Shown piece by piece: positions 27 to 10,400 of a stretch of 10,400 bases of DNA; the stretch's first letter is position 1; each line of letters begins with the position of its first letter. A model generated the notes under the pieces. The model was not told where the DNA came from, did no database searches, and saw nothing but the letters and a program-made list of their open reading frames with translations. A program made the translations under genes and the position numbers. Source of the stretch: a virus. The DNA lies in the UHGV virus genome UHGV-0037186; one strand, given 5' to 3'.

Positions 27-52
27 AAAAACCCGCCATTTGGCGGGTTTTA
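27..52. terminator. Intrinsic (rho-independent) terminator hairpin, symmetric so potentially bidirectional
   Basis: A-tract (27-31), stem CCCGCC (32-37) pairing with GGCGGG (42-47), 4-nt loop ATTT, then T-tract (48-51). Overlaps the stop codon (50-52, minus strand TAA) of the minus-strand ORF 50..610. Confidence 0.7.
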
Positions 53-610
53 TGCGCAAATTTTTTCGCAGTCTTGCGAGTGACTGAGTGAGCGAGTAAC
101 TCTCTCCACCTCATGAATGTCGCCCAACGATCTTATACGCAGGGCAAGATTCCACGTACTCAATGTGCGCGCGTTACGCACCAGTTCTTCCCGTGCTTTT
201 TCGTCTTTGCTGTCAAGACGACCGCAGTCGTTCAACCATTTAGCGACTTCCGCCCAGTCCCAGAGTGGAGACTGACCGCTGATACGCTGAACAGGGCAAG
301 GAAAATCACCTTTGCCACGTAATCCGTCTTTAAGCAGAGTAATAGCCTGGCGCGTTAAGCCAGAGAGTTGAGCAATATCGCTCAAGCCTACCAGTGCTGA
401 ATCTACCGATTCCACCACTGCGCCAATGCCTGCTGTTTCAATATCAAGGATTGCCGATTCGATTGCTTCATCTAAAGATTTAGCTTCTCGGTCAAATTCT
501 ACATACACTGAGTTTCCGTAGTAGCAAATGAGCGCATCATCGCAACCGTGGCTATACAGAGCATCTGCGACTACGCAGTACTGACTACAGGTTATCAGAA
601 TTATCCCCAT
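50..610 (-). CDS. Hypothetical protein, 186 aa; Cys-rich N-terminus (CxxxC ... CxxxxC) and HTH-like C-terminal segment (DIAQLSGLTRQAITLL ... WDWAEVAKWL); possible DNA-binding regulator
   Basis: Long uninterrupted minus-strand ORF ending exactly at the terminator hairpin 27-52. Protein-like composition. No recognisable Shine-Dalgarno upstream of the ATG at 608-610, so the start is uncertain. Function inferred only from motif-level resemblance. Confidence 0.5.
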   Translation of the reverse strand: MGIILITCSQYCVVADALYSHGCDDALICYYGNSVYVEFDREAKSLDEAIESAILDIETAGIGAVVESVDSALVGLSDIAQLSGLTRQAITLLKDGLRGKGDFPCPVQRISGQSPLWDWAEVAKWLNDCGRLDSKDEKAREELVRNARTLSTWNLALRIRSLGDIHEVERVTRSLSHSQDCEKICA

Positions 611-687
611 TTACATCAGCTTATCTACGTCAGCCCTCAAGTTCTTCAGCAAGCCAGCTCCACCGCCTGATTCCAACATGATAAAAT

Positions 688-711
688 TGATATACGAAAA
701 TAAGTATATAG
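688..711. promoter_or_regulatory. Inverted repeat in the divergent intergenic region (candidate operator)
   Basis: TGATATAC (688-695), 8-nt spacer, GTATATAG (704-711); arms are reverse complements at 7 of 8 positions (core ATATAC/GTATAT perfect). Lies between the minus-strand ORF start (610) and the plus-strand ATG at 720. Confidence 0.3.
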
Positions 712-719
712 ATAACATT

Positions 720-1151
720 ATGAGCGCCGATATCTACGAAAAAATCATGTCCGATCTGGAGTTCGACCGCGACAATCTGGAGGAAGTCTGGCGTCAGCAA
801 CCGCGTCTGTTGATGGAGTATGGCTCTAAGCTGGCACGGGCAGAACGTGAGGTTGCAGATGCAAAACTATCTCTCGACGCGATCGAGGCAAAAATCTATG
901 ACAACGAGCGTAAGAGCTTGAGTATGAATGGAATTAAGTTTAATGAATCCGTACTGGAAGCGAAGGTTAGAACCAACCCGCAATACCTCGCAAAGCGCCA
1001 GAAACTCGACGATGCTCGACACATTGCAGACCTGTACAAGCACGCTGTAGCCGCCTTCTCCCACCGCCGCGATATGATTGTCCAGGCGTCGAAGATGGCT
1101 ATCGTAGAGATAGAGCGTCTGGGGGCCGAACGATTCCATTTACCCCGTTAA
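720..1151 (+). CDS. Hypothetical small, predicted helix-rich protein (~143 aa); possible UvsY-like recombination mediator
   Basis: ORF in the track runs 678..1151. I prefer the in-frame ATG at 720 because the inverted repeat 688-711 would otherwise sit inside the coding sequence; neither start has a clear SD. The UvsY-like call is a from-memory pattern resemblance to T4 UvsY and the genomic context (next to gp32-like SSB and RecA-like genes), not a verified alignment. Confidence 0.5.
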   Translation: MSADIYEKIMSDLEFDRDNLEEVWRQQPRLLMEYGSKLARAEREVADAKLSLDAIEAKIYDNERKSLSMNGIKFNESVLEAKVRTNPQYLAKRQKLDDARHIADLYKHAVAAFSHRRDMIVQASKMAIVEIERLGAERFHLPR

Positions 1152-1270
1152 TTTATGCTAGATAGTAAGTAAGTACTGATCTATCATTCTTCTCGCTCGA
1201 AAGAGCCACGAACAAACGAACGCCCAATGCGCATAGCGCCAATGGCCACAATCACAACAAGGAGAAATAC

Positions 1271-2287
1271 ATGTCTAAGTCATTACTTGATCTGCTTAAC
1301 AAGACCCGTGGCGATATTGCTTCCAAACGTGGCAATAACATTGATTTGACCCGTCTGAAAGATGGCAATAACTATCTGCGCATTTTTCCGAACAAGGACG
1401 ATCCGAATGGCGTGTTCTTCCAGACTTTCGGTATGCACTACGTTAAGCATCAGAATGAGGAAGGCAAAGATGTAACCACCGCCTATATCTGCGAACAACA
1501 CACCCACGGCCACGCTTGCCAGCTGTGTGAGATGGTTATGGAAGGTCGCGCTCGCTTTAAGGGCAACAAAGCGATGGAAGAGCGCATTAATAGTATGCGT
1601 GCTACGCCGCGTTATCTGGTCAACGGTGTTCTGTCTGCGCGTGAAGACTTTGCGGACGCAGAGAAATGCCAGCTGATTGAGCTGCCGTCTACGGTCTTCG
1701 ACGATATCTGCAAAGTGATGTCCGAAGATATTGCGGACGATATTGGCAACCCACTGAGCAAAGAAGAAGGCTATGCGTTCCTGATTAAACGCACCGGTTC
1801 CGGTCGTGACACCAAGTACGACGTATCCCCGAAACGTAAAGTCTACAAAGGCGACATTCCTGAGAAGCTCTGGACTACCCAACACGATCTGATCGCATAT
1901 GCGAACCAGGCTGACGAAACTCGTTTGCTGTCCACGACTCGCACTATGGGTCGTCTGATTGGTATTGCGGCTCCGGCAGCAACTATGTCCTCACCAGCCA
2001 TTTCTTCCGCTGCAAAATCAGCCGCAGCTGGACTGCCAGGCTTTGGCTCTATCACTGGTCATACGGAAGGCGCAGCTGCTGTCGCTACAGCACATACTCC
2101 GGCGCCAGAGTCCACCAGCCTGGTTGATGAAGAGATCCTGCGTGCCGCTGAAGCTGAGTTCAAACCGGAAGAAGCGAAAGCTCCGGAAGCCACCGAAGCC
2201 GCAAGTGCTTCAGCATCTGCTGCCGCTGCATCTGTACCAGCTGATGAAGGTCTCGATGACCTGCTGGCTGAACTGGACGCTCTGTAA
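1271..2287 (+). CDS. Single-stranded DNA-binding protein, phage T4 gp32-like (Zn-binding core, low-complexity linker, acidic C-terminal tip)
   Basis: Strong SD AAGGAG (1259-1264) 6 nt before ATG 1271. N-terminal region resembles gp32 (LRIFPNKDDPNGVFF; Cys/His cluster CEQHTHGHACQLCE consistent with a Zn site). C-terminal ~120 aa is Ala/Ser/Pro/Thr-rich and ends in the acidic tip DEGLDDLLAELDAL typical of SSB interaction tails. Followed by a terminator. Confidence 0.75.
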   Translation: MSKSLLDLLNKTRGDIASKRGNNIDLTRLKDGNNYLRIFPNKDDPNGVFFQTFGMHYVKHQNEEGKDVTTAYICEQHTHGHACQLCEMVMEGRARFKGNKAMEERINSMRATPRYLVNGVLSAREDFADAEKCQLIELPSTVFDDICKVMSEDIADDIGNPLSKEEGYAFLIKRTGSGRDTKYDVSPKRKVYKGDIPEKLWTTQHDLIAYANQADETRLLSTTRTMGRLIGIAAPAATMSSPAISSAAKSAAAGLPGFGSITGHTEGAAAVATAHTPAPESTSLVDEEILRAAEAEFKPEEAKAPEATEAASASASAAAASVPADEGLDDLLAELDAL

Positions 2288-2304
2288 TCCCATAACGTAA
2301 CCAG

Positions 2305-2333
2305 TAAGGCGTCTGCGGACGCCTTACTTTTTG
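2305..2333 (+). terminator. Intrinsic terminator after the SSB gene
   Basis: Stem TAAGGCGTC (2305-2313) / GACGCCTTA (2318-2326), loop TGCG, followed by CTTTTTGG. The T-tract runs directly into the SD (GGAAGGAG 2333-2340) of the next gene, suggesting partial termination or attenuation. Confidence 0.75.
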
Positions 2334-2347
2334 GAAGGAGTGTACCG

Positions 2348-3292
2348 GTGAATTATCTCTTTGTGGACGGTAACAGCCTGGGCTATTACCACCAGCAATC
2401 CGACAAATTACACAACGGCGAGATGGAAGTTCAGGCGGCTTTTGGCTTCGTGAAGAACGTTCGTCGTTACGCCTCAATTCTCCATGCCCGGCCAATGATC
2501 TTGTGGGATGGATTCAGCGACAAACGTCGCGACTTCTACCCGGAGTACAAAGCGAACCGCGACGACGACCCGGACATGAAGAAGATGAAAGAAGGCTTTG
2601 CCATCCAGAAGCCGTACATCTTGAAAATGATGACCGCGCTGGGCGTTAACCAACTCATTGCAAAGGACGCAGAAGCGGATGACCTGGCTGGAATGCTGGT
2701 CTCTCGTCTGGCTCCGCAGCCGACCGTCGATCACATCTACCTGCTGACTGGCGATGGCGACTGGCTCCAGCTTGTTCGTGAGAACGTGAGCTGGATAAGC
2801 CTGCGTGAAGACGCCAAGCACAAGCAGGTGAACTTCGAACAGTTCGCAGAGCTGACCGGTCTGCCGACCCCACGCGCGTTTCTGGAAGCGAAAGCGTTGC
2901 AGGGCGATAACTCGGACAACATCAAAGGCGTAGGTGGCATTGGTGATGGTGGCGCGAAAGAGCTGCTTCATGAATGGGGAAGCGTGGCCGCAATGGTACG
3001 CGGCATTAACGACGGTTCCATTGTCATCAACAAAGGTCGCTATAAGACGGCATTCAACAAGCTGGCAAAGAACGCCTTCAACGAGAAGACGGGCTGCCGG
3101 ATGCTCGAAGCCTTTAAGCGCAACATGATGCTGATGAACCTTATCGACACAAAATTCCCACCCAGCGAAATCGAGTCGATTAAAGGCGCACGCGATATGA
3201 GCGCCTTTGAACAGATGTGTTACGAGCTGAATTTCCGTTCGTTTCTGGAAGATCTGGAAGTGTTTGTTCTGCCGTTTGAGAGGTATTGCTGA
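2348..3292 (+). CDS. 5'-3' exonuclease / flap endonuclease (FEN; Pol I 5'-nuclease / T5 D15 / T4 RNase H family)
   Basis: GTG start at 2348 preceded by strong SD GGAAGGAG. Hallmark motifs present: N-terminal LFVDGNSL, acidic clusters (AEADD, LLTGDGDW) and the helix-3-turn-helix DNA-binding motif GDNSDNIKGVGGIGDGGAKELL. Confidence 0.85.
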   Translation: MNYLFVDGNSLGYYHQQSDKLHNGEMEVQAAFGFVKNVRRYASILHARPMILWDGFSDKRRDFYPEYKANRDDDPDMKKMKEGFAIQKPYILKMMTALGVNQLIAKDAEADDLAGMLVSRLAPQPTVDHIYLLTGDGDWLQLVRENVSWISLREDAKHKQVNFEQFAELTGLPTPRAFLEAKALQGDNSDNIKGVGGIGDGGAKELLHEWGSVAAMVRGINDGSIVINKGRYKTAFNKLAKNAFNEKTGCRMLEAFKRNMMLMNLIDTKFPPSEIESIKGARDMSAFEQMCYELNFRSFLEDLEVFVLPFERYC

Positions 3293-3558
3293 TGCTGAAA
3301 TCCATCATTAATGGCGGGGCAACTACGCCAACCATGCTGGCAAAGGAGATTGTTTTCTGCCACGGCGAGCACGCTGTGGTAGCGCTGCCGAACATTCTGG
3401 GCGCTGCTGGCATTTCTGCTACTGAGCGTGAGTTCGCGCTGGTCAGTGAGCAGGTCGTGAAGATCATCGCTCGCGTCGCCAAACACCTGAACCACGACGC
3501 AATCAAGTTTGACGAAGCCGCTGCTTCGAAGCGAATCAACGAATCAAAAGGAGCCTAA
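3292..3558 (+). CDS. Hypothetical protein (~88 aa), unknown function
   Basis: ATG at 3292 overlaps the TGA stop of the upstream FEN gene (TGATG), with GAGAGG upstream, suggesting translational coupling. The track's TTG start at 3286 is unlikely. Ends 2 nt before the recA-like gene, whose SD lies in its 3' end. Confidence 0.55.
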   Translation: MLKSIINGGATTPTMLAKEIVFCHGEHAVVALPNILGAAGISATEREFALVSEQVVKIIARVAKHLNHDAIKFDEAAASKRINESKGA

Positions 3559-3560
3559 TC

Positions 3561-5900
3561 ATGGCAAAAGGCAAATCCGCACTGGCACTGGCGCTGAAAA
3601 AGAAAATCGGCAGCAATGACGAGATTCAGAAGGTCTCCCACTGGATTGACTCCGGTTTCCCTCCACTGAACAAAGCCATTTCCGGACGTTACGACGGTGG
3701 TTTTCCGTGTGGGCGTATCGTTGAAGTCTTCGGGCCACCAAGCGCGGGGAAATGTGTTACCGCAGACACCATGCTGCTGACGGAGCGTGGAATGGTAACA
3801 GTGAAAGAACTGTTTGAGATTGAGGGGCACAAAGCAACATGCACTACTCGCGATGTAGAGCATAACGTTGGACTCATCAATGAAAATGGCGTGATAGAGA
3901 AAACCTCACACCTGACATGGAACAACCGTCGCAAATTCAAGCGCATTAAGCTGGCATCAGGGGGTTACATCGAGGCTACGTTCCGTCACCCAATTCGTGT
4001 GGTTGACGACTTAGGCAATATCGTCTGGCGGTATGCTGAAAAAATCAGTGTAGGCGACACGATTCCTTCAATGGTTGGCACACATCAATTCGGCGATCAG
4101 CACTTGGATGCCAATATCGCAAAACTGATGGGCTATTTAATTGCTGACGGATACGTGGCCTCTGAAAATTCTGTGCATTTTTCTAACACAGATCCATTCA
4201 TCAAGGATGAGTACTACCGCCTCATTTCGCTGGTATCAGACAAGATGCCAGTTACGAGAAAACATAACGGCTCGGAAGACCATGTGCTGTTTAGCAAAGA
4301 GGTGCGTTCGCTGCTTTTTAAAGAATATGGTCTGGAGTATGAGAAAGCTGCTGGCAAGCAGGTTCCGTTGAGTGTGCGTCGCGCCAATAGCGAGGCTCAA
4401 ATTGCATTCCTTCGCGGCTACTTTGAGCTGGAATGCCACGTCAATGATGGTCGCTGCATTGAGGTTGTGAGCGCGAGTGGGCTGCTGCTACAGCAAATTC
4501 GCCTCATGCTCCTGAATCTGGGGATTACGTCAACTATCTCTGAAAAACACGTCGCAGGTTATAAAAACATATATTACCGGCTGTCATTCAGTGGCTCTAA
4601 CTACGACCTTTTCCTGTCAACGATTGGGTTCGAGTCTCCGGCTCGTTTAGCAGTGGCAACCAAACGGGACATTAGTTTTGACCGCACTTATTTAGGCTAC
4701 GTTCCGCACATCAGCGGCTTAGTGAAATCACTCTACGAGTCACTCACCAAGACCTCTCGTAAAGACTACGTTCTGGTAGATCACGTTATTGGCCGCGGCG
4801 ATCGTGTCGGAATAGACAAACTGCGAGAAATCTATGTCTCCTTCATTGGCAGAAAGAATCGTTTTAACGAGCATCTGTTTGCACAACTGGCAGCGGTAAT
4901 TGACTCTAACTTGTTCTACGACGAAGTCGTGGCTATTGAGGAAGGTGAAGCACCAACGTTCGACGTAGCGATGCCGGAAACACACTCTTTCTGGTCTAAC
5001 GGGATTATCAGCCACAACACATTCCTCGCGACGGCTGCGATGGTGTCAGCACAAAAACAGGATGGTCTGGCCGTATTCCTTGACCACGAAAACAGTTTCG
5101 ACGTTGGTCTGGCGGTAGCGAACGGACTGAACGCCGACGAAGACGACGGTCAGTGGGTCTACAAACAGCCGGATACCTTCGAAGACTCCGTAGAGCTGAT
5201 CGGCACAATCCTCAAGCTGGTGCGCGACGAAGAGCTTATTCCGGAAACAGCCCCTATCTGCATCGTAGCCGACTCTCTGGCGTCGATGGTTCCGAACTCG
5301 AAGGCTGAGAAGTTCGACAAGATGGCAGAAGGCACTGCGAAGGACAAAGATCAGCTGAACATGAACGACAACACGGCGCTGGCGCGCGCGACAAGTGCGA
5401 ACTTCCCTACTCTGGCGCTTTGGGCGCGTAAGTACAACGCGTGCATCATCTTCTTGAACCAGGTGCGTACCAAAATTGGTGTGATGTTTGGCGATCCGAC
5501 TACGTCTCCGGGTGGCGACTCTCCGAAGTTCTACGCGTCGGTGCGCATCCGTCTGGGTGCATCCGTCATGAAGGATGGCAAAGAGAAGATCGGACAGGAC
5601 GTTGGCGCCGAGTGCATTAAAAACAAAGTCGCACCTCCGTTTGGCAAATGCTCATGGAAATTCTACTTCGACCCGACTCGCGGGCTGGACGTCGTCGAGT
5701 CTCTGGTTGAATACATGCTGGAGGAAGGATACCTGCCCAAGAGCGCCAGCGGGCGTGTGGAAATTGGCGAGAAGAAATACACCAAATCACAGATCGTCGA
5801 GATGTACCGGGAGAAGCCATTAGCTGAAATCATTGCTGCGTTACAGGCAATAGATGACAGGCGCGAGAAGACATCACCGACAGATGAATTAGAAGATTAA
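3561..5900 (+). CDS. recA: RecA-family recombinase precursor (779 aa) containing an in-frame intein; predicted mature RecA ~357 aa
   Basis: SD AAAGGAG (3547-3553) 7 nt before ATG. N-extein ends GRIVEVFGPPSAGK (compare E. coli RecA GRIVEIYGPESSGKT). C-extein resumes with T and carries RecA-typical segments (FLNQVRTKIGVMFGDPTTSPGGDSPKFYASVRIRLG, compare E. coli [35 protein letters not shown]). Closer to bacterial RecA than to T4 UvsX, by recall. Followed by a terminator. Confidence 0.9.
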   Translation: MAKGKSALALALKKKIGSNDEIQKVSHWIDSGFPPLNKAISGRYDGGFPCGRIVEVFGPPSAGKCVTADTMLLTERGMVTVKELFEIEGHKATCTTRDVEHNVGLINENGVIEKTSHLTWNNRRKFKRIKLASGGYIEATFRHPIRVVDDLGNIVWRYAEKISVGDTIPSMVGTHQFGDQHLDANIAKLMGYLIADGYVASENSVHFSNTDPFIKDEYYRLISLVSDKMPVTRKHNGSEDHVLFSKEVRSLLFKEYGLEYEKAAGKQVPLSVRRANSEAQIAFLRGYFELECHVNDGRCIEVVSASGLLLQQIRLMLLNLGITSTISEKHVAGYKNIYYRLSFSGSNYDLFLSTIGFESPARLAVATKRDISFDRTYLGYVPHISGLVKSLYESLTKTSRKDYVLVDHVIGRGDRVGIDKLREIYVSFIGRKNRFNEHLFAQLAAVIDSNLFYDEVVAIEEGEAPTFDVAMPETHSFWSNGIISHNTFLATAAMVSAQKQDGLAVFLDHENSFDVGLAVANGLNADEDDGQWVYKQPDTFEDSVELIGTILKLVRDEELIPETAPICIVADSLASMVPNSKAEKFDKMAEGTAKDKDQLNMNDNTALARATSANFPTLALWARKYNACIIFLNQVRTKIGVMFGDPTTSPGGDSPKFYASVRIRLGASVMKDGKEKIGQDVGAECIKNKVAPPFGKCSWKFYFDPTRGLDVVESLVEYMLEEGYLPKSASGRVEIGEKKYTKSQIVEMYREKPLAEIIAALQAIDDRREKTSPTDELED
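3753..5018 (+). mobile_element. Intein (422 aa) with LAGLIDADG homing-endonuclease domain, inserted in the Walker A P-loop of the RecA-family gene
   Basis: Starts with Cys (codon 65, TGT 3753-3755) immediately after GPPSAGK. Ends ...GIISHN (His-Asn, codons 485-486) followed by Thr+1 (the Walker A Thr). Block B-like T-x-x-H (ATFRHPI). LAGLIDADG motifs LMGYLIADGYV (~4124-4156) and FLRGYFELECHV (~4407-4442). Length is a multiple of 3 (1266 nt) and in-frame. Confidence 0.85.
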
Positions 5901-5905
5901 TTTTC

Positions 5906-5930
5906 AGGCGTCCGAATGGACGCCTTTATA
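5906..5930 (+). terminator. Intrinsic terminator after the recA-like gene
   Basis: Stem AGGCGTCC (5906-5913) / GGACGCCT (5918-5925), loop GAAT, followed by TTTATA. Stem sequence is closely related to the SSB terminator stem. Confidence 0.7.
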
Positions 5931-5990
5931 CCTTGAAAATATATAAGCACTTACTTACCATCTACACACAATAGCCACATAGGAAAACAC

Positions 5991-6191
5991 ATGATCAAAC
6001 TCTATCTGATGGCAGTGGCTACAGGTATATCTGTAGTTTTCATCTACTGTTTGCTGGTTCCGTCGCTGATCTCGGCTAAAAGCAATATTGCCGTAATGCT
6101 TGGAATCATTGTTGCTTTTGGCGCTCCTGTTATCGGCTTTAATGTTGGTCGTAACTTTCTGAAGTCACTAATTAATTCGAAGGGGAAGTAA
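5991..6191 (+). CDS. Small hydrophobic membrane protein (66 aa, two predicted TM helices)
   Basis: AGGA (5981-5984) 6 nt before ATG. Two long hydrophobic stretches (LYLMAVATGISVVFIYCLLVPSLI and IAVMLGIIVAFGAPVIGF) with a basic C-terminus. Its stop overlaps the SD region of the next gene. Confidence 0.5.
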   Translation: MIKLYLMAVATGISVVFIYCLLVPSLISAKSNIAVMLGIIVAFGAPVIGFNVGRNFLKSLINSKGK

Positions 6192-6194
6192 GTA

Positions 6195-6386
6195 ATGAAG
6201 AAAGGTTTACTGGCAGTGATCGTGGCTGCTGTTTGCACAATGGGTCTTACAGGCTGCGATCGTGTTGAGCCTGGGTACGTTGGCATCAAAGTAAACAAAT
6301 TGGGTGAAGACAAAGGTATCGGTGAAGTTGTCGGCGTTGGCCGTCAGTGGACTGGTCTGAATACCGAGCTGTACACCTCTCTTTAA
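6195..6386 (+). CDS. Small lipoprotein (63 aa); possibly a truncated N-terminal fragment of an SPFH/band-7-type lipoprotein
   Basis: SD AAGGGGA 7 nt before ATG. Signal peptide MKKGLLAVIVAAVCTMG plus lipobox L-T-G-C. The mature part (VEPGYVGIKVNKLGEDKGIGEVV...) resembles the start of an SPFH domain, but the ORF stops after ~40 residues of it. Confidence 0.55.
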   Translation: MKKGLLAVIVAAVCTMGLTGCDRVEPGYVGIKVNKLGEDKGIGEVVGVGRQWTGLNTELYTSL

Positions 6387-6409
6387 GTCATCTTAAATGA
6401 CTCTGAGGT

Positions 6410-6457
6410 GTCTGTTAAACCTGTGGCGATTCAGTCTATTAAACCTGTGGCGATTCA
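6410..6457. repeat. Tandem direct repeat, 2 x 24 bp (GTCTGTTAAACCTGTGGCGATTCA / GTCTATTAAACCTGTGGCGATTCA), one mismatch
   Basis: Read directly from the sequence at 6410-6433 and 6434-6457. Lies in the 232-bp AT-rich non-coding spacer between the lipoprotein ORF and hsdM. Confidence 0.8.
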
Positions 6458-6618
6458 CTTTATGGTGTCATAAACTTAAATCTAGCGCCGGGTAGAACAA
6501 GTTAATCGAACGATGTAGCGGCCATTTAGGCGTTACAGAAAGAACAGAATTTTAAATTTATAGTGAAGCCGTTGCAGCAACTTTGTGGGGTGCAACCAAC
6601 ACTGAACAGGAAAAGAAA

Positions 6619-9042
6619 ATGGATCATAGTGTACATAACAAGCTCATCTCATTTATTTGGAACATTGCCGACGACTGTTTACGTGATGTGTACGTTCGCG
6701 GTAAGTACCGCGATGTGATTTTACCTATGGTGGTATTACGACGTTTAGATACGTTACTTGAACCCACCAAAGAAGCCGTGCTTGAAGAGGTCAAGTTCCA
6801 AAAAGAAGAGATGCAAGCCACGGAGCTTGATGATGAACCATTGAAGGCGGCTAGTGGTTATGTTTTTTACAATACATCTAAATGGACCCTGAAATCCCTG
6901 TTCAACACCGCAACGAATAACCAACAGATATTACTCGCCAACTTTGAAGAGTACCTGCTTGGCTTTAGCGATAATGTTAAAGAAATCATTGAATGCTTTA
7001 ACCTCAAGTTGCAAATTCGTCACATGGCCTCAAAGCAAGTCCTTCTTGATGTCGTCGAAAAGTTTGTTTCCCCTTACATCAACTTAACTCATGAAACGGT
7101 CGAAGACCCAGATGGCAACAAGATGCCAGCCCTTACTAACCTGGGTATGGGGTACGTGTTCGAAGAGTTGATCCGTAAGTTCAACGAAGAAAACAACGAA
7201 GAAGCCGGTGAGCACTTTACACCTAGGGAAGTGATTGAGCTGATGACACACTTGGTTTTTGACCCAGTGAAAGAGCAGCTACCATTGACCATGACCGTTT
7301 ACGACCCTGCGTGTGGTAGCGGTGGTATGCTCACTGAATCTCAAAACTTCATTGAAGAGAAATACCCGAACGACAGCCGAGATATTTACCTTTACGGCAA
7401 AGAGATCAATGACGAGACCTACGCGATTTGTAAATCGGACATGATGATCAAAGGCAACAACCCTGAGAACATCAAAGTAGGCTCAACCTTGTCTACCGAC
7501 GAGTTTGCGGCTTCACGCTTTGACTTTATGTTGTCTAACCCGCCATACGGTAAGAGTTGGGCGTCTGAACAGAAGTACATTAAAGACGGCAGTGATGTGA
7601 TTGACCCGCGTTTTAAGGTTAGCCTGAAAGACTATTGGGGAAATCTCGAAGTGGTGGATGCCACGCCACGTTCGAGTGATGGCCAGCTGCTTTTCTTAAT
7701 GGAGATGGTCAACAAGATGAAAGATCCGAGCGTAAGTCCATTAGGCAGCCGGATTGCCTCTGTTCATAACGGCTCATCGCTCTTTACCGGTGATGCGGGC
7801 GGTGGCGAAAGTAATATTCGTCGCTTCATCATTGAAAACGACATGCTAGATGCCATCGTTCAGTTACCTAATAACCTGTTCTATAACACTGGCATTACCA
7901 CTTACATTTGGGTGTTGAGCAACAATAAACCTGAGGCGCGTAAAGGTAAGGTGCAATTAATTGATGCCAGCTTGCTCTACCGTAAGTTGCGCAAGAACTT
8001 AGGTAACAAAAACTGCGAATTTGCGCCTGAGCACATCACGGAAATTACCGATACTTACCTCGCGTGTAAGGATGTTGAAAGAGCACTGGATGCAAACAAT
8101 GATCCTGTTGGCATCGCCAGTAAGGTATTCAGCAATGACGATTTTGGCTACTACAAAGTCACTATCGAGCGCCCAGATCGCCGCAAAGCCAAGTTTACTC
8201 AAGATGCCATAGCCCCACTGCGTTTTGATAAGCAACTTAGTGAAGTGATGGAGTACGTGTACGCAGAGCACGGCGAACGTGTTTACGAAAAAACTGGCTA
8301 CGGGTCAGATCAGAAAAAGAGCTTCTTAAAATCCATCGAGAAAGACATTCTTTCTTGGTGTGAAGATAACGACATCAGTCTCAATGCTAAGGCTAAGGCC
8401 AAACTGCTTGATGTGAAACACTGGCTGGCGCTAAAAGCATTGCTTGAAACTGCACAAACGCTGATGGCTGACATCGGTAGCATTGAATTTGATGACTTCA
8501 ATAGCTTTAAAACCCAAGTTGATAAATCGCTAAAAGCCCATGCTATTAAGCTTTCAGCACCTGAGAAAAATGCCATTCTTCACGCGGTGAGCTGGTATGA
8601 CGAAACCGCCAAGAAAGTGGTTAAAAAGGTAGTTAAATTAACGGGTGATAAATTAAACGACCTGCTGGAGCGCTATGAGTGTGAAGTCGCTGACTTGCCA
8701 GATTTTGGTTATTACCCCGTTCCTTCAGCAGAAGGCGGTAAAAAAGGCGAGTATATCACTTACGAGACCAATTCAGACCTGCGAGATACAGAATCTGTTC
8801 CATTAAAGCAAAGCATTTACCAGTACTTCCTAGATGAAGTGAAGCCTCATGTCGATGAAGCATGGATAAACCTAGATACGGTAAAAATTGGCTATGAAAT
8901 CAGCTTCAATAAGTATTTCTACCGTCATAAACCGCTGCGTAGTTTAGAAGAGGTCGCAACCGACATCATCAACCTAGAACAAAAAGCCGAAGGTTTGATT
9001 GCGCAGATTCTTGGTGCGGAAGTAAAAAAGGTTCAGGGGTAA
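6619..9042 (+). CDS. hsdM: Type I restriction-modification system, DNA methyltransferase subunit M (N6-adenine), unusually long (~807 aa)
   Basis: SD AGGA (6608-6611) 7 nt before ATG 6619; the track's 6583 start is an upstream TTG extension. HsdM N-terminal domain signature (LISFIWNIADDCLRDVYVRGKYRDVILPMVVLRRLD), FTPREV, AdoMet motif I DPACGSGGML (~7303-7332) and catalytic motif IV NPPYG (~7537-7551). About 330 aa extend beyond the catalytic core. Confidence 0.9.
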   Translation: MDHSVHNKLISFIWNIADDCLRDVYVRGKYRDVILPMVVLRRLDTLLEPTKEAVLEEVKFQKEEMQATELDDEPLKAASGYVFYNTSKWTLKSLFNTATNNQQILLANFEEYLLGFSDNVKEIIECFNLKLQIRHMASKQVLLDVVEKFVSPYINLTHETVEDPDGNKMPALTNLGMGYVFEELIRKFNEENNEEAGEHFTPREVIELMTHLVFDPVKEQLPLTMTVYDPACGSGGMLTESQNFIEEKYPNDSRDIYLYGKEINDETYAICKSDMMIKGNNPENIKVGSTLSTDEFAASRFDFMLSNPPYGKSWASEQKYIKDGSDVIDPRFKVSLKDYWGNLEVVDATPRSSDGQLLFLMEMVNKMKDPSVSPLGSRIASVHNGSSLFTGDAGGGESNIRRFIIENDMLDAIVQLPNNLFYNTGITTYIWVLSNNKPEARKGKVQLIDASLLYRKLRKNLGNKNCEFAPEHITEITDTYLACKDVERALDANNDPVGIASKVFSNDDFGYYKVTIERPDRRKAKFTQDAIAPLRFDKQLSEVMEYVYAEHGERVYEKTGYGSDQKKSFLKSIEKDILSWCEDNDISLNAKAKAKLLDVKHWLALKALLETAQTLMADIGSIEFDDFNSFKTQVDKSLKAHAIKLSAPEKNAILHAVSWYDETAKKVVKKVVKLTGDKLNDLLERYECEVADLPDFGYYPVPSAEGGKKGEYITYETNSDLRDTESVPLKQSIYQYFLDEVKPHVDEAWINLDTVKIGYEISFNKYFYRHKPLRSLEEVATDIINLEQKAEGLIAQILGAEVKKVQG

Positions 9043-9048
9043 GTCGTT

Positions 9049-10350
9049 ATGATGAAGATTTCTGAAATGCCGAAATATGAGGTTTATAAGGATTCAGGTG
9101 TTGAATGGCTAGGGGATATTCCTGCGTCTTGGAGCTTATTAGCTAATAAGCACATCTTTCGCTTGAAGAAAAAACAGGTTGGAAAACGCTCAAGCGAATA
9201 TGATTTGCTATCGCTTACTCTCAGAGGTGTGATTAAGCGTGATATGGAAAACCCAGAGGGTAAGTTCCCAGCAGAGTTCGATACTTATCAAGAAGTGCAG
9301 TGTGGAGATTTCATTTTCTGCTTGTTCGACGTGGAAGAAACACCCAGAACTGTTGGGTTGTCGCCATTTAATGGGATGATTACTGGTGCATATACCGTTT
9401 TTGAACTAAATGACAATTTTGATAATAGGTTTTTATACTATTTTTATATGAACCTTGATGCAAAAAAGATGCTTAAACCGCTTTATCGTGGCCTGAGAAA
9501 TACAATTCCTAAAGATTCATTTCTGAGTTTTAAGACGTTTGTTCCTCCCCATGAGCAACAAACCCGTATCGCCAACTTCCTAGACAAGAAAACCGCTCTA
9601 ATCGACGAAGCGATTTCGATCAAAGAGCAGCAAATTAGCCTGCTGAAAGAGCGTAAGCAGATCATCATCCAACAGGCGGTGACCCAAGGGCTTGATCCCA
9701 ATGTGCCAATGAAAGACTCCGGTGTGGATTGGATTGGTAAGATTCCAGCGCATTGGGATATTGTGCCAGGATTTACAGTATTTAAAGAGGGAAAAGACTC
9801 GAACAAAGGGATGATTGAATCACAAGTTTTATCTCTCAGTTATGGAAATGTTATTATAAAACCAGAGGAGAAATTGGTTGGGCTTGTACCTGAGTCTTTT
9901 GAAACGTATCAAATAGCTTTACCTGGCGACATCATAATACGTTGTACAGACTTGCAAAATGACAAAACGAGCTTGAGAACGGGTATAGTGCGGAATAAAG
10001 GAATTATAACTAGTGCTTACCTTAACTTACGGTTGAAAACGGAACATTCAGCTGAATTTATGCATTATTTTCTTCATGTATTAGATATAACTAAAACTAT
10101 ATATCGTTTTGGTTCTGGGCTGAGACAAAACTTGAGTTATAAAGATTTTAAGCATATGAGAATATTGATGCCTCCTAAAGCAGAGCAAATTGAAATAGTA
10201 AATTACATCAATAATCAAGTAGAAGTGACTGAGTCATCTATTGATCTGATTAAAAATAAAATAGAAAAATTAAAAGAATACAAAACCACCCTGATCAACA
10301 GCGCCGTGACAGGAAAAATAAAAATCACCCCAGAAATGGTTGAGCAATAG
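9049..10350 (+). CDS. hsdS: Type I restriction-modification system, specificity subunit S (two target-recognition domains)
   Basis: Starts 6 nt after the hsdM stop (translational coupling). Internal duplicated architecture typical of HsdS: TRD1 begins SGVEWLGDIPASWSL, TRD2 begins SGVDWIGKIPAHWDI; conserved central region (PPHEQQTRIANFLDKKTALIDEAI) and C-terminal region (PPKAEQIEIVNYINNQVEVTESSI). The 3' half is very AT-rich. Confidence 0.85.
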   Translation: MMKISEMPKYEVYKDSGVEWLGDIPASWSLLANKHIFRLKKKQVGKRSSEYDLLSLTLRGVIKRDMENPEGKFPAEFDTYQEVQCGDFIFCLFDVEETPRTVGLSPFNGMITGAYTVFELNDNFDNRFLYYFYMNLDAKKMLKPLYRGLRNTIPKDSFLSFKTFVPPHEQQTRIANFLDKKTALIDEAISIKEQQISLLKERKQIIIQQAVTQGLDPNVPMKDSGVDWIGKIPAHWDIVPGFTVFKEGKDSNKGMIESQVLSLSYGNVIIKPEEKLVGLVPESFETYQIALPGDIIIRCTDLQNDKTSLRTGIVRNKGIITSAYLNLRLKTEHSAEFMHYFLHVLDITKTIYRFGSGLRQNLSYKDFKHMRILMPPKAEQIEIVNYINNQVEVTESSIDLIKNKIEKLKEYKTTLINSAVTGKIKITPEMVEQ

Positions 10351-10359
10351 GACGCGAAT

Positions 10360-10400
10360 ATGTTCACGGTAAATCATCAAACCAACAGGATTAGTCCTGT
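10360..10400 (+). CDS. 5' end of an unidentified downstream ORF (MFTVNHQTNRISP...), truncated by the window edge
   Basis: ATG at 10360, 9 nt after the hsdS stop, with a weak AGGA upstream. Only 13 codons visible; could be hsdR or an accessory gene, and cannot be identified from this fragment. Confidence 0.2.
   Translation, partial: MFTVNHQTNRISP

Follow-up and report, generated by a model that had tools for sequence, protein, structure and literature searches.

Positions 720 to 5,900 of a 10,400-nucleotide stretch from UHGV virus genome UHGV-0037186 (the whole of which we refer to as the window) are likely to constitute the homologous-recombination operon of an SSU5-type phage-plasmid. The five genes code in order for a putative UvsY-like recombination mediator, a T4 gp32-type single-stranded DNA-binding protein (SSB), a flap endonuclease (FEN), a small protein that we designate ORF88, and a RecA-like recombinase whose P-loop is interrupted by an intein (Table 1). 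A first-pass annotation of this DNA had described the cluster as a self-contained, phage-type recombination kit; it called the last of the genes RecA-like and overlooked the intein.

The entire window is 100% identical to sequence of plasmid pB379_2 (NZ_CP090457.1, 152 kb) of Escherichia coli B379, and bases 678-6374 share 92% DNA identity with Salmonella phage SSU5 and 85% with the Escherichia phages Cyrano (pLF82) and PhiR41_1. The SSU5-type phage-plasmids are ~100-110 kb in length and have hosts in the Enterobacteriaceae. They are siphovirus prophages that are maintained as plasmids, hence the term 'phage-plasmids', and RecA-like proteins are among the persistent genes of the SSU5 supergroup (PMC7969092). 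Both SSU5 (gp056-060) and Cyrano (CYRAN_52-55) contain the same five genes in the same order and in the same place as in the window, downstream of dnaE and upstream of a membrane protein gene, an SPFH gene and repA; the SSU5 recombinase lacks the intein, whereas that of Cyrano contains it, as does the window. The surroundings of the window in pB379_2, with genes for RepA, a CobT-like protein, an AAA ATPase and DnaE, match the flanking arrangement of both phages.

Using a distant family member as query we recovered 80 related viral contigs, and in all 80 the order UvsY-like, gp32, FEN, (ORF88), RecA is retained where the sequence is present, even where the first two proteins have only 31-35% identity to those of the window. 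The UvsY-like gene adjoins gp32 in 79 of the 80, and RecA follows wherever the contig is long enough. The pairing of a gp32-type SSB with a RecA-type recombinase, considered unusual at first pass, is instead the rule in this element family. Nor is the kit self-contained, because genes for DnaE, a DnaB-like helicase, primase, ligase and an SbcD-like nuclease are found on these elements as well. The operon is present in 232 of 5426 complete E. coli genomes (~4%) and all copies are plasmid-borne; with 0 of the 232 on a chromosome, a conserved chromosomal locus is ruled out, and the operon resides on a mobile phage-derived replicon, as had been suggested. The cluster is already known, because the public record for Cyrano names the four recognisable genes as 'UvsY recombination mediator', 'SSB T4 gp32-like', 'Exonuclease' and 'RecA'. 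It is thus ordinary for this element family, and the population genetics of the intein described below is a modest addition. A search of the literature on UvsY together with SSU5 or phage-plasmids returned nothing relevant.

The replicon that contains the window looks like a decayed, mosaic, 'plasmidised' remnant of an SSU5-type phage-plasmid. Genes for portal, terminase, DNA ligase and a DnaB-like helicase are on the replicon. Of the virion genes, annotation across the 152 kb lists just those for portal and the terminase large subunit and none for capsid or tail, so that the virion gene set is incomplete as far as annotation shows. The genes for primase, ParB and an SbcD-like metallophosphoesterase are pseudogenes. 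Approximately 90 kb of pB379_2 is cargo bounded by IS26 and IS1, made up of ars (arsenic resistance), ttr (tetrathionate reductase), bcs (cellulose synthesis), dha (1,3-propanediol), psiB and umuDC together with two group II introns.

Genes and hairpins of the operon

Table 1. Coordinates of the features in the window, in order of position, with the matches or properties that characterize them.
Feature	Coordinates	Strand	Basis and properties
AlpA-like helix-turn-helix regulator, divergent, in a variable slot	50..610	-	phrog_2620 'excisionase and transcriptional regulator' E 4.6e-85; RefSeq helix-turn-helix transcriptional regulator
Gene 1, putative UvsY-like recombination mediator (remote homologue), 143 aa	720..1151	+	Fold, profile-profile comparison, synteny
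Gene 2, T4 gp32-family ssDNA-binding protein with Ala/Ser-rich linker and acidic C-terminal tail, 338 aa	1271..2287	+	PF08804
Terminator-like hairpin within the operon, directly 5' of the FEN Shine-Dalgarno sequence	2303..2332	+	11-bp stem, UGCG loop, U5; centroid -19.6 kcal/mol, z -2.85
Gene 3, 5'-3' exonuclease / flap endonuclease (FEN) of T5 D15 / Pol I 5'-nuclease type, 314 aa	2348..3292	+	PF02739 1.8e-24, PF01367 4.1e-12
Gene 4, ORF88, small helical protein translationally coupled to FEN and RecA, 88 aa	3292..3558	+	phrog_2207 (unknown function) 3e-58
Gene 5, RecA N-extein, aa 1-64, ending GPPSAGK (first part of Walker A)	3561..3752	+	Colinear with and 100% identical to intein-less SSU5 gp060
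Gene 5, intein with LAGLIDADG homing endonuclease domain, 422 aa	3753..5018	+	PF14890, PF14528 (4.4e-18), TIGR01445, TIGR01443
Gene 5, RecA C-extein, aa 487-779: Walker A Thr, catalytic-Glu region, Walker B, L2 loop, C-terminal domain, acidic tail	5019..5900	+	PF00154
Terminator-like hairpin at the operon end	5906..5929 (stem 5906-5925)	+	8-bp GC-rich stem, GAAU loop, UUUAU; -16.4 kcal/mol, z -5.63, 0/200 shuffles as stable

All five open reading frames are on the plus strand, in agreement with the first-pass annotation; the third has a GTG start, and the fifth, intein included, is 779 codons long. The junctions are short or overlapping, as also noted earlier: the FEN stop and the ORF88 start share one nucleotide (TGATG), and ORF88 and RecA are separated by 2 nt, the remaining gaps being 119 nt (gene 1-SSB) and 60 nt (SSB-FEN). 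The strong Shine-Dalgarno (SD) sequences that had been ascribed to the cluster can be read upstream of four of the genes (AAGGAG before 1271, GGAAGGAG before 2348, GAGAGG before 3292, and AAGGAG before 3561), but none is recognisable upstream of gene 1 at 720. An alternative start for gene 1 at 678 is possible; its distant homologues begin at the position equivalent to 720. A TTGATA hexamer is present at 688-693, and the gene 1 mRNA may have a very short or leaderless 5' end.

Gene 1 had been singled out at first pass as the weakest link, and the fold of its product, profile-profile comparison and synteny now support the UvsY-like assignment. An AlphaFold (AF2) model built with 13 homologues in the alignment has a pLDDT of 91.3, and when it was searched against the Protein Data Bank (PDB) with Foldseek the top 19 matches were all T4 UvsY (4ZWQ, 4ZWR, 4ZWS, 4ZWT), with TM scores of 0.66-0.80 normalized to the query and 0.75-0.91 to the target; the next fold scores 0.51. 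The superposition is full-length and colinear, with an rmsd of 1.8-3.5 Å over ~130 columns and an identity of 13-17%. Comparison by hhalign of the gene 1 family (13 sequences) with a UvsY profile gives an E-value of 8.9e-4 and a probability of 23%, and with 36 diverse members, aligned to a profile built from eight well-established UvsY proteins, these become 2.3e-5 and 76%. Individual family members match a UvsY hidden Markov model (HMM), and one of them, P0119, forms a bridge, with E-values of 2e-17 to the window family and 1.6e-3 to Pfam UvsY (19.3 bits, cutoff 22.8). Among phage protein families (PHROGs) the best match of gene 1 is phrog_2058 (1.9e-71); the 'UvsY-like' phrog_231 matches at 1.6e-3 over 117 of the 143 residues, ranking behind four PHROGs of unknown function. 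Searches of PDB sequences with phmmer and with the family HMM gave no match, and it was the comparison of folds and the richer profiles that brought out the link to UvsY. Taken together, the modelled fold, the profile signal and the synteny make it very likely that gene 1 encodes a remote homologue of UvsY.

The family to which gene 1 belongs is large. An exhaustive HMM search at E <= 1e-3 returned 3511 representatives of 50%-identity clusters, most of them unannotated, and a motif resembling RRDMIVQASK, RRDMIVQ(A/L)(S/G)K, is characteristic of the family. About one third of the top 150 members (P0074-P0220) are longer proteins of 250-420 aa with the UvsY-like domain at the C-terminus and an extended, acidic, low-complexity N-terminal region without a Pfam match; these correspond to PHROGs 1069, 9245 and 4969, all of 'unknown function'. 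A parallel UvsY/gp32/recombinase cluster was considered at the Pfam UvsY of Vibrio phage 2.058.O, but the neighbours there are a Dda-like helicase and an unknown protein, and a search for related loci with P0119 as query returned none.

The gp32-like nature of the SSB, which had been put forward for checking by HMM search, is evident from its match to PF08804 (E 1.1e-71, 241.6 bits, cutoff 26.8) across the complete profile (1-208 of 208); T4 gp32 matches the same model with the same coverage (4.9e-67, 226.4 bits). The direct BLASTP comparison of the two proteins is insignificant (E 0.06) and phmmer finds no match for the SSB in the PDB, and the relationship thus rests on the common Pfam model and on alignment of motifs. 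Three cysteines align with the T4 zinc ligands Cys77, Cys87 and Cys90 and are kept in all five SSU5-type sequences aligned, and there is a conserved histidine 3-4 residues away from the column of T4 His64. At the C-terminus, DEGLDDLLAELDAL aligns with DTDLDDLLNDL, the acidic LDDLL tail of T4 gp32, and in this protein-interaction tail ...ADEGLDDLLAELDAL is aligned to T4 ...DDTDLDDLLNDL. Some copies are named 'T4-gp32 family ssDNA-binding protein' in RefSeq. Conservation within the operon is lowest in the Ala/Ser/Glu-rich linker (2013-2288), with ~55% DNA identity over its last 125 nt to both Cyrano and the related locus L014; the LDDLL end is nevertheless retained.

The third gene contains both 5'-3' exonuclease Pfam domains, in line with its initial assignment as a FEN, and its nearest solved structures are those of the T5 exonuclease D15 (5hmm/1exn, ~8e-17) and of Pol I 5'-nuclease domains rather than that of T4 RNase H. 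ORF88 is a genuine gene and is conserved. It has no Pfam or NCBIfam match, and a homology search returned close relatives only (at least 61% identity), the named ones being from Enterobacteriaceae; at the level of gene position, however, it is found in 73 of the 80 contigs, with 42-54% identity in the more distant ones, and was not detected in two loci, L016 and L030. The moderately confident AF2 model (pLDDT 73.6) has four helices and matches no fold in the PDB, all hits having E > 1 and TM < 0.45.

Two hairpins were located by eye and by folding against shuffled sequences. The internal attenuator-like terminators proposed by the first-pass annotation are represented by one of them, between SSB and FEN, and this hairpin with its T-run occupies the same position in 12 of 12 relatives, with an altered stem in L016 (GGGGCUC/GAGCCCC), L019 and L030. 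The hairpin after RecA is present in 11 of the 12, being absent from L016 and differing in sequence in L019, L027, L030 and L074. The window and most close relatives have one core stem, GGCGUC...GACGCC, in both hairpins (2308-2323 and 5907-5924), where the stems of distant relatives are different. Outside of the intein, the post-SSB hairpin and the FEN start make up the best-conserved part of the operon (89% DNA identity). A generic promoter scan was uninformative, and an Rfam search of the window found no known RNA family.

The recombinase and its intein

The fifth open reading frame matches PF00154 at 1.2e-36 (126.9 bits, cutoff 27). The 357-aa product predicted after splicing is RecA-like rather than UvsX-like, as proposed at first pass, matching bacterial RecA structures at 2e-35 to 2e-30 and T4 UvsX (3io5) at 1.7e-5. 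It is not an equivalog of cellular RecA but a member of a distinct phage lineage, since it scores 135.1 bits against the cellular RecA equivalog TIGR02012, which has a cutoff of 325.3. The spliced protein would contain a complete Walker A motif (GPPSAGK-T), a catalytic-Glu region (FLDHEN) and Walker B (CIVADS), and its L2 DNA-binding loop, VRTKIGVMFGDPTTSPGG, aligns with that of E. coli RecA.

The intein accounts for 422 of the 779 codons and is inserted exactly between Lys64 and the threonine within Walker A (GPPSAGK/C...HN/T, the slashes marking the two junctions). SSU5 gp060 and the RecA of pSLy3 read GPPSAGK-TFLATAAM at this position with no gap and no extra residue, and the intein is thus precisely absent. 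It has the motifs of a class 1 intein, all of them intact, and is predicted to splice: Cys1 is C65, block B is TFRH (T140-H143), the terminal residues are H485-N486, and the +1 nucleophile is T487, with scores of 35.8 for TIGR01445 (cutoff 24.5) and 17.8 for TIGR01443 (cutoff 15.6). Its two LAGLIDADG motifs, each with an acidic residue for catalysis, are LMGYLIADGY (aa 189-198) and FLRGYFELECH (aa 283-293), the second of which ends Glu-Cys and not Asp/Glu-Gly. Because the intein splits the P-loop, the recombinase should be an ATPase only after protein splicing. Some copies are named 'intein-containing recombinase RecA' in RefSeq. In plasmid pYLPI6a (NZ_CP074043.1; locus L005, 5561-7900) the intein region appears scrambled, with a pseudogene for the RecA N-terminal part, a LAGLIDADG fragment in inverted orientation and, apart from these, a RecA open reading frame of 1104 nt.

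The intein is polymorphic. It occupies 120 of the 232 operon copies in the 5426 complete E. coli genomes and 21 of 81 alleles among the loci retrieved, and it is present in 248 plasmids of the PLSDB collection from eight genera (Escherichia, Klebsiella, Enterobacter, Citrobacter and four others), at 99% identity or more in 162 of them. Against a plasmid whose operon has no more than 74-88% identity to that of the window, the DNA of the intein retains 93-100% identity, and the level changes abruptly at the intein borders. The 21 occupied alleles belong to three or more backbone haplotypes, and every one has the junction GCGGGGAAA/ACA (GCG GGG AAA / ACA), whereas empty alleles on the same backbones read, for example, GCT GGT AAA / ACC, and all of the junction differences are synonymous. 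Among 60 empty alleles the left tract is found in one and ACA in none; the insertion site without the intein reads GCTGGTAAA/ACCTTCCT.

The step in identity together with the synonymous junction tract points to recent homing mediated by an endonuclease, with a co-conversion tract of a few bases. Judged from these alignments, the intein has recently spread by homing among diverged phage-plasmid lineages, and its LAGLIDADG domain is predicted to be an active endonuclease. We found no description of the intein in this RecA or of its homing signature in the literature searched (SSU5 with intein). The intein offers a clear population-level example of active homing among plasmid-borne prophages of at least eight genera.

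One can go further and propose, as a speculation that we think improbable, both that the intein has a function, keeping the recombinase ATPase-dead during plasmid carriage until splicing is triggered or sped up by single-stranded DNA (ssDNA) or DNA damage, as for the RadA intein of Pyrococcus horikoshii, and that the UvsY-like family is a general mediator of RecA-type phage recombinases outside of the T4-like phages. If true, the recombinase would be gated post-translationally to prophage induction, and, because homing requires homologous recombination, the intein would also be located in the gene that catalyses its own spread.

Proposed function and alternative readings

By analogy with the T4 presynaptic system we infer that the gp32-type SSB would coat ssDNA at resected ends or stalled forks, and that the UvsY-like mediator would help the RecA-like recombinase displace the SSB and build a filament. 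Strand invasion would then prime recombination-dependent replication, generate concatemers or repair breaks, with the FEN taking off 5' flaps and RNA primers, and with polymerase, helicase, primase and ligase (and in Cyrano the SbcD-like nuclease) provided by the wider element. The hairpin after the SSB gene probably yields an excess of the stoichiometric SSB and mediator over FEN, ORF88 and RecA, and the recombinase would be made as a precursor with its P-loop interrupted by the intein. In lysogeny, expression above local background is listed for the neighbouring hicAB but not for CYRAN_52-55, and Cyrano is induced 39-fold by ciprofloxacin (PMC9928086). Expression of the operon is probably lytic.

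Several observations weigh against a UvsY-led recombination operon, and most of them concern gene 1. It has no Pfam match at all, and the reading frame 678-1151 does not match PF11056 (UvsY) at E <= 0.1, a model against which T4 UvsY scores 179.5 bits (cutoff 22.8). Alignment by hhalign with T4 UvsY alone is insignificant (probability 0.2%), the Foldseek E-values for the UvsY matches are just 2e-3 to 4e-2, and the UvsY fold is a simple helical bundle. In the weak hhalign alignment the T4 ssDNA-binding residue K58 falls in a gap and R60 is opposite a glutamate, and the invariant lysine of the gene 1 family, K49, is ~9 residues upstream of these two columns. Helical bundles recur by convergence, and with an identity to UvsY as low as that given above, gene 1 could encode an unrelated coiled-coil or helical protein, such as a regulator or scaffold, that resembles the UvsY fold. 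We consider this the least probable of the alternatives, and quite unlikely: nineteen consecutive top PDB matches are to UvsY over the full length with a clear gap before the next fold, the profile signal grows as the alignment diversifies, members match the UvsY HMM and P0119 scores on Pfam UvsY, the match to the UvsY-like PHROG spans most of the protein, and the gene is always beside gp32 and RecA. Beyond gene 1, the SSB N-terminus, MSKSLLDLLNKTRGDIASKRGN, is without the T4-style KRKST cooperativity motif, and another surface may serve for cooperative binding in its place. A generic terminator scan showed no enrichment (10 found, 7.1 +/- 2.9 expected) and missed both hairpins. No experimental study of any of the operon proteins was found in the literature, and because the copy in the window is on a decayed element it may now serve a role other than that of the operon in an intact phage-plasmid.

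Two further alternatives accept the gene identities and differ as to what the operon is for. It could be mainly a lagging-strand replication module, with SSB and FEN serving the replisome of the element and with RecA and the UvsY-like protein secondary and restricted to fork restart. The operon directly follows dnaE and is near repA, the helicase, primase and ligase genes are on the same replicon, and the hairpin divides mediator and SSB from the downstream genes; in T4, moreover, the core of the replisome includes gp32 and RNase H, and both rnh and gene 59 are found within 2 kb of gene 32. However, the mediator is first and the recombinase last in one tightly coupled unit in all 80 contigs, which argues for a common task, and no role is known for a UvsY-type mediator beyond loading of the recombinase. 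The two readings are also compatible, because T4 replication is itself recombination-dependent, and as a rival this one is possible but unlikely. It is distinctly less probable that the operon acts mainly in the plasmid (lysogenic) state, in repair and maintenance or in modulation of the host SOS response, and not in lytic replication. The operon on pB379_2 is intact and 100% identical to other copies despite the loss of most virion genes and the acquired cargo, and PLSDB types 232 of the 248 intein-carrying replicons as non-mobilizable plasmids; but pB379_2 may be a recent derivative in which the operon has simply not yet decayed, and the Cyrano genes are not listed as transcribed above background in lysogeny (PMC9928086).

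We retain a homologous-recombination operon as the likely reading of positions 720-5900. SSU5-type phage-plasmids are frequent in clinical Enterobacteriaceae and swap genes with plasmids, and their own recombinases with the associated proteins are the probable driver of their lytic replication as well as of their mosaicism. The structural comparison supports a UvsY-type identity for the 'hypothetical protein' before the SSB, a member of a large and mostly unannotated family, and so strengthens an annotation that already exists. A RecA-type recombinase alongside a gp32/UvsY-type loading system is a natural test case for the specificity between mediators and recombinases.

Flanking regions and comparison with known systems

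The slot between dnaE and the operon (window 50-719) is variable. It is occupied by the AlpA-like regulator in the window and in SSU5, which has an additional small open reading frame, and by HicA/HicB in Cyrano, and it is empty in pSLy3 and L014. An IS3 element splits the dnaE gene (Pol III alpha) of pB379_2 just outside the left edge of the window (7254-12021 of locus L001), and the C-terminal fragment of dnaE that it displaced has its tail in bases 1-21 of the window. In an intein-less relative, L015 (1-3375; pIncFIB of E. coli PC-NDM34), a free-standing gene for an HNH endonuclease interrupts dnaE, a second homing-type element in the same replication module, and behind it comes a helix-hairpin-helix pseudogene that represents the dnaE C-terminus.

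Downstream of the operon, the SPFH/stomatin-like gene that follows the membrane protein gene in SSU5 and Cyrano is cut in the window at 6374 by an insertion sequence-associated type I restriction-modification (R-M) island (window 6374-10400; L001 18195-26775). The island contains hsdM (6583/6619-9042) and hsdS (9049-10350), then a DUF4268 gene and hsdR, with an IS3-family transposase fragment at its far end. Positions 6374-6442 are interpreted as a solo IS3-family end because they are 97% identical to sequence beside an ISEhe3-like orfA in Shigella phage SfIV.

The functional set of the operon is that of the T4 UvsX/UvsY/gp32 system with RNase H: a recombinase, a putative mediator of the UvsY fold, a zinc-type SSB with an LDDLL tail, and a 5' nuclease of the FEN family. 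The SbcD-like nuclease encoded nearby in Cyrano would be the analogue of T4 gp46/47. The T4-like layout claimed at first pass holds for gene content but not for arrangement, because the T4 genes are dispersed, with uvsY at 114.9 kb and gene 32 at 147 kb (~32 kb apart), whereas here they form a contiguous operon. The components differ as well, in that the recombinase is far nearer to bacterial RecA, the mediator falls outside Pfam UvsY, the FEN is like T5 D15 and Pol I and unlike T4 RNase H, and the SSB lacks KRKST.

The intein can be compared with several others. That of Mycobacterium tuberculosis RecA (NF007072) is likewise contained in a RecA precursor that requires splicing for activity, but the window RecA scores 95.9 bits against NF007072, for which the cutoff is 1024. 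The insertion site of the M. tuberculosis intein also differs, lying in the C-terminal half of the protein and not in Walker A. An intein does interrupt the P-loop of Pyrococcus horikoshii RadA, where ATPase activity is blocked until splicing and ssDNA speeds the splicing reaction (PMC5238726). The nearest other inteins, at 33-34% identity, are in helicase and RecA genes of the Herelleviridae, and in the RecA of one of these, Bacillus phage fHSPT3, an intein 33% identical to that of the window is inserted at the equivalent P-loop site (GKPGGGK/C...HN/S). In contrast to these Herelleviridae and archaeal P-loop inteins, the host gene here belongs to phage-plasmids of the gamma-proteobacteria.

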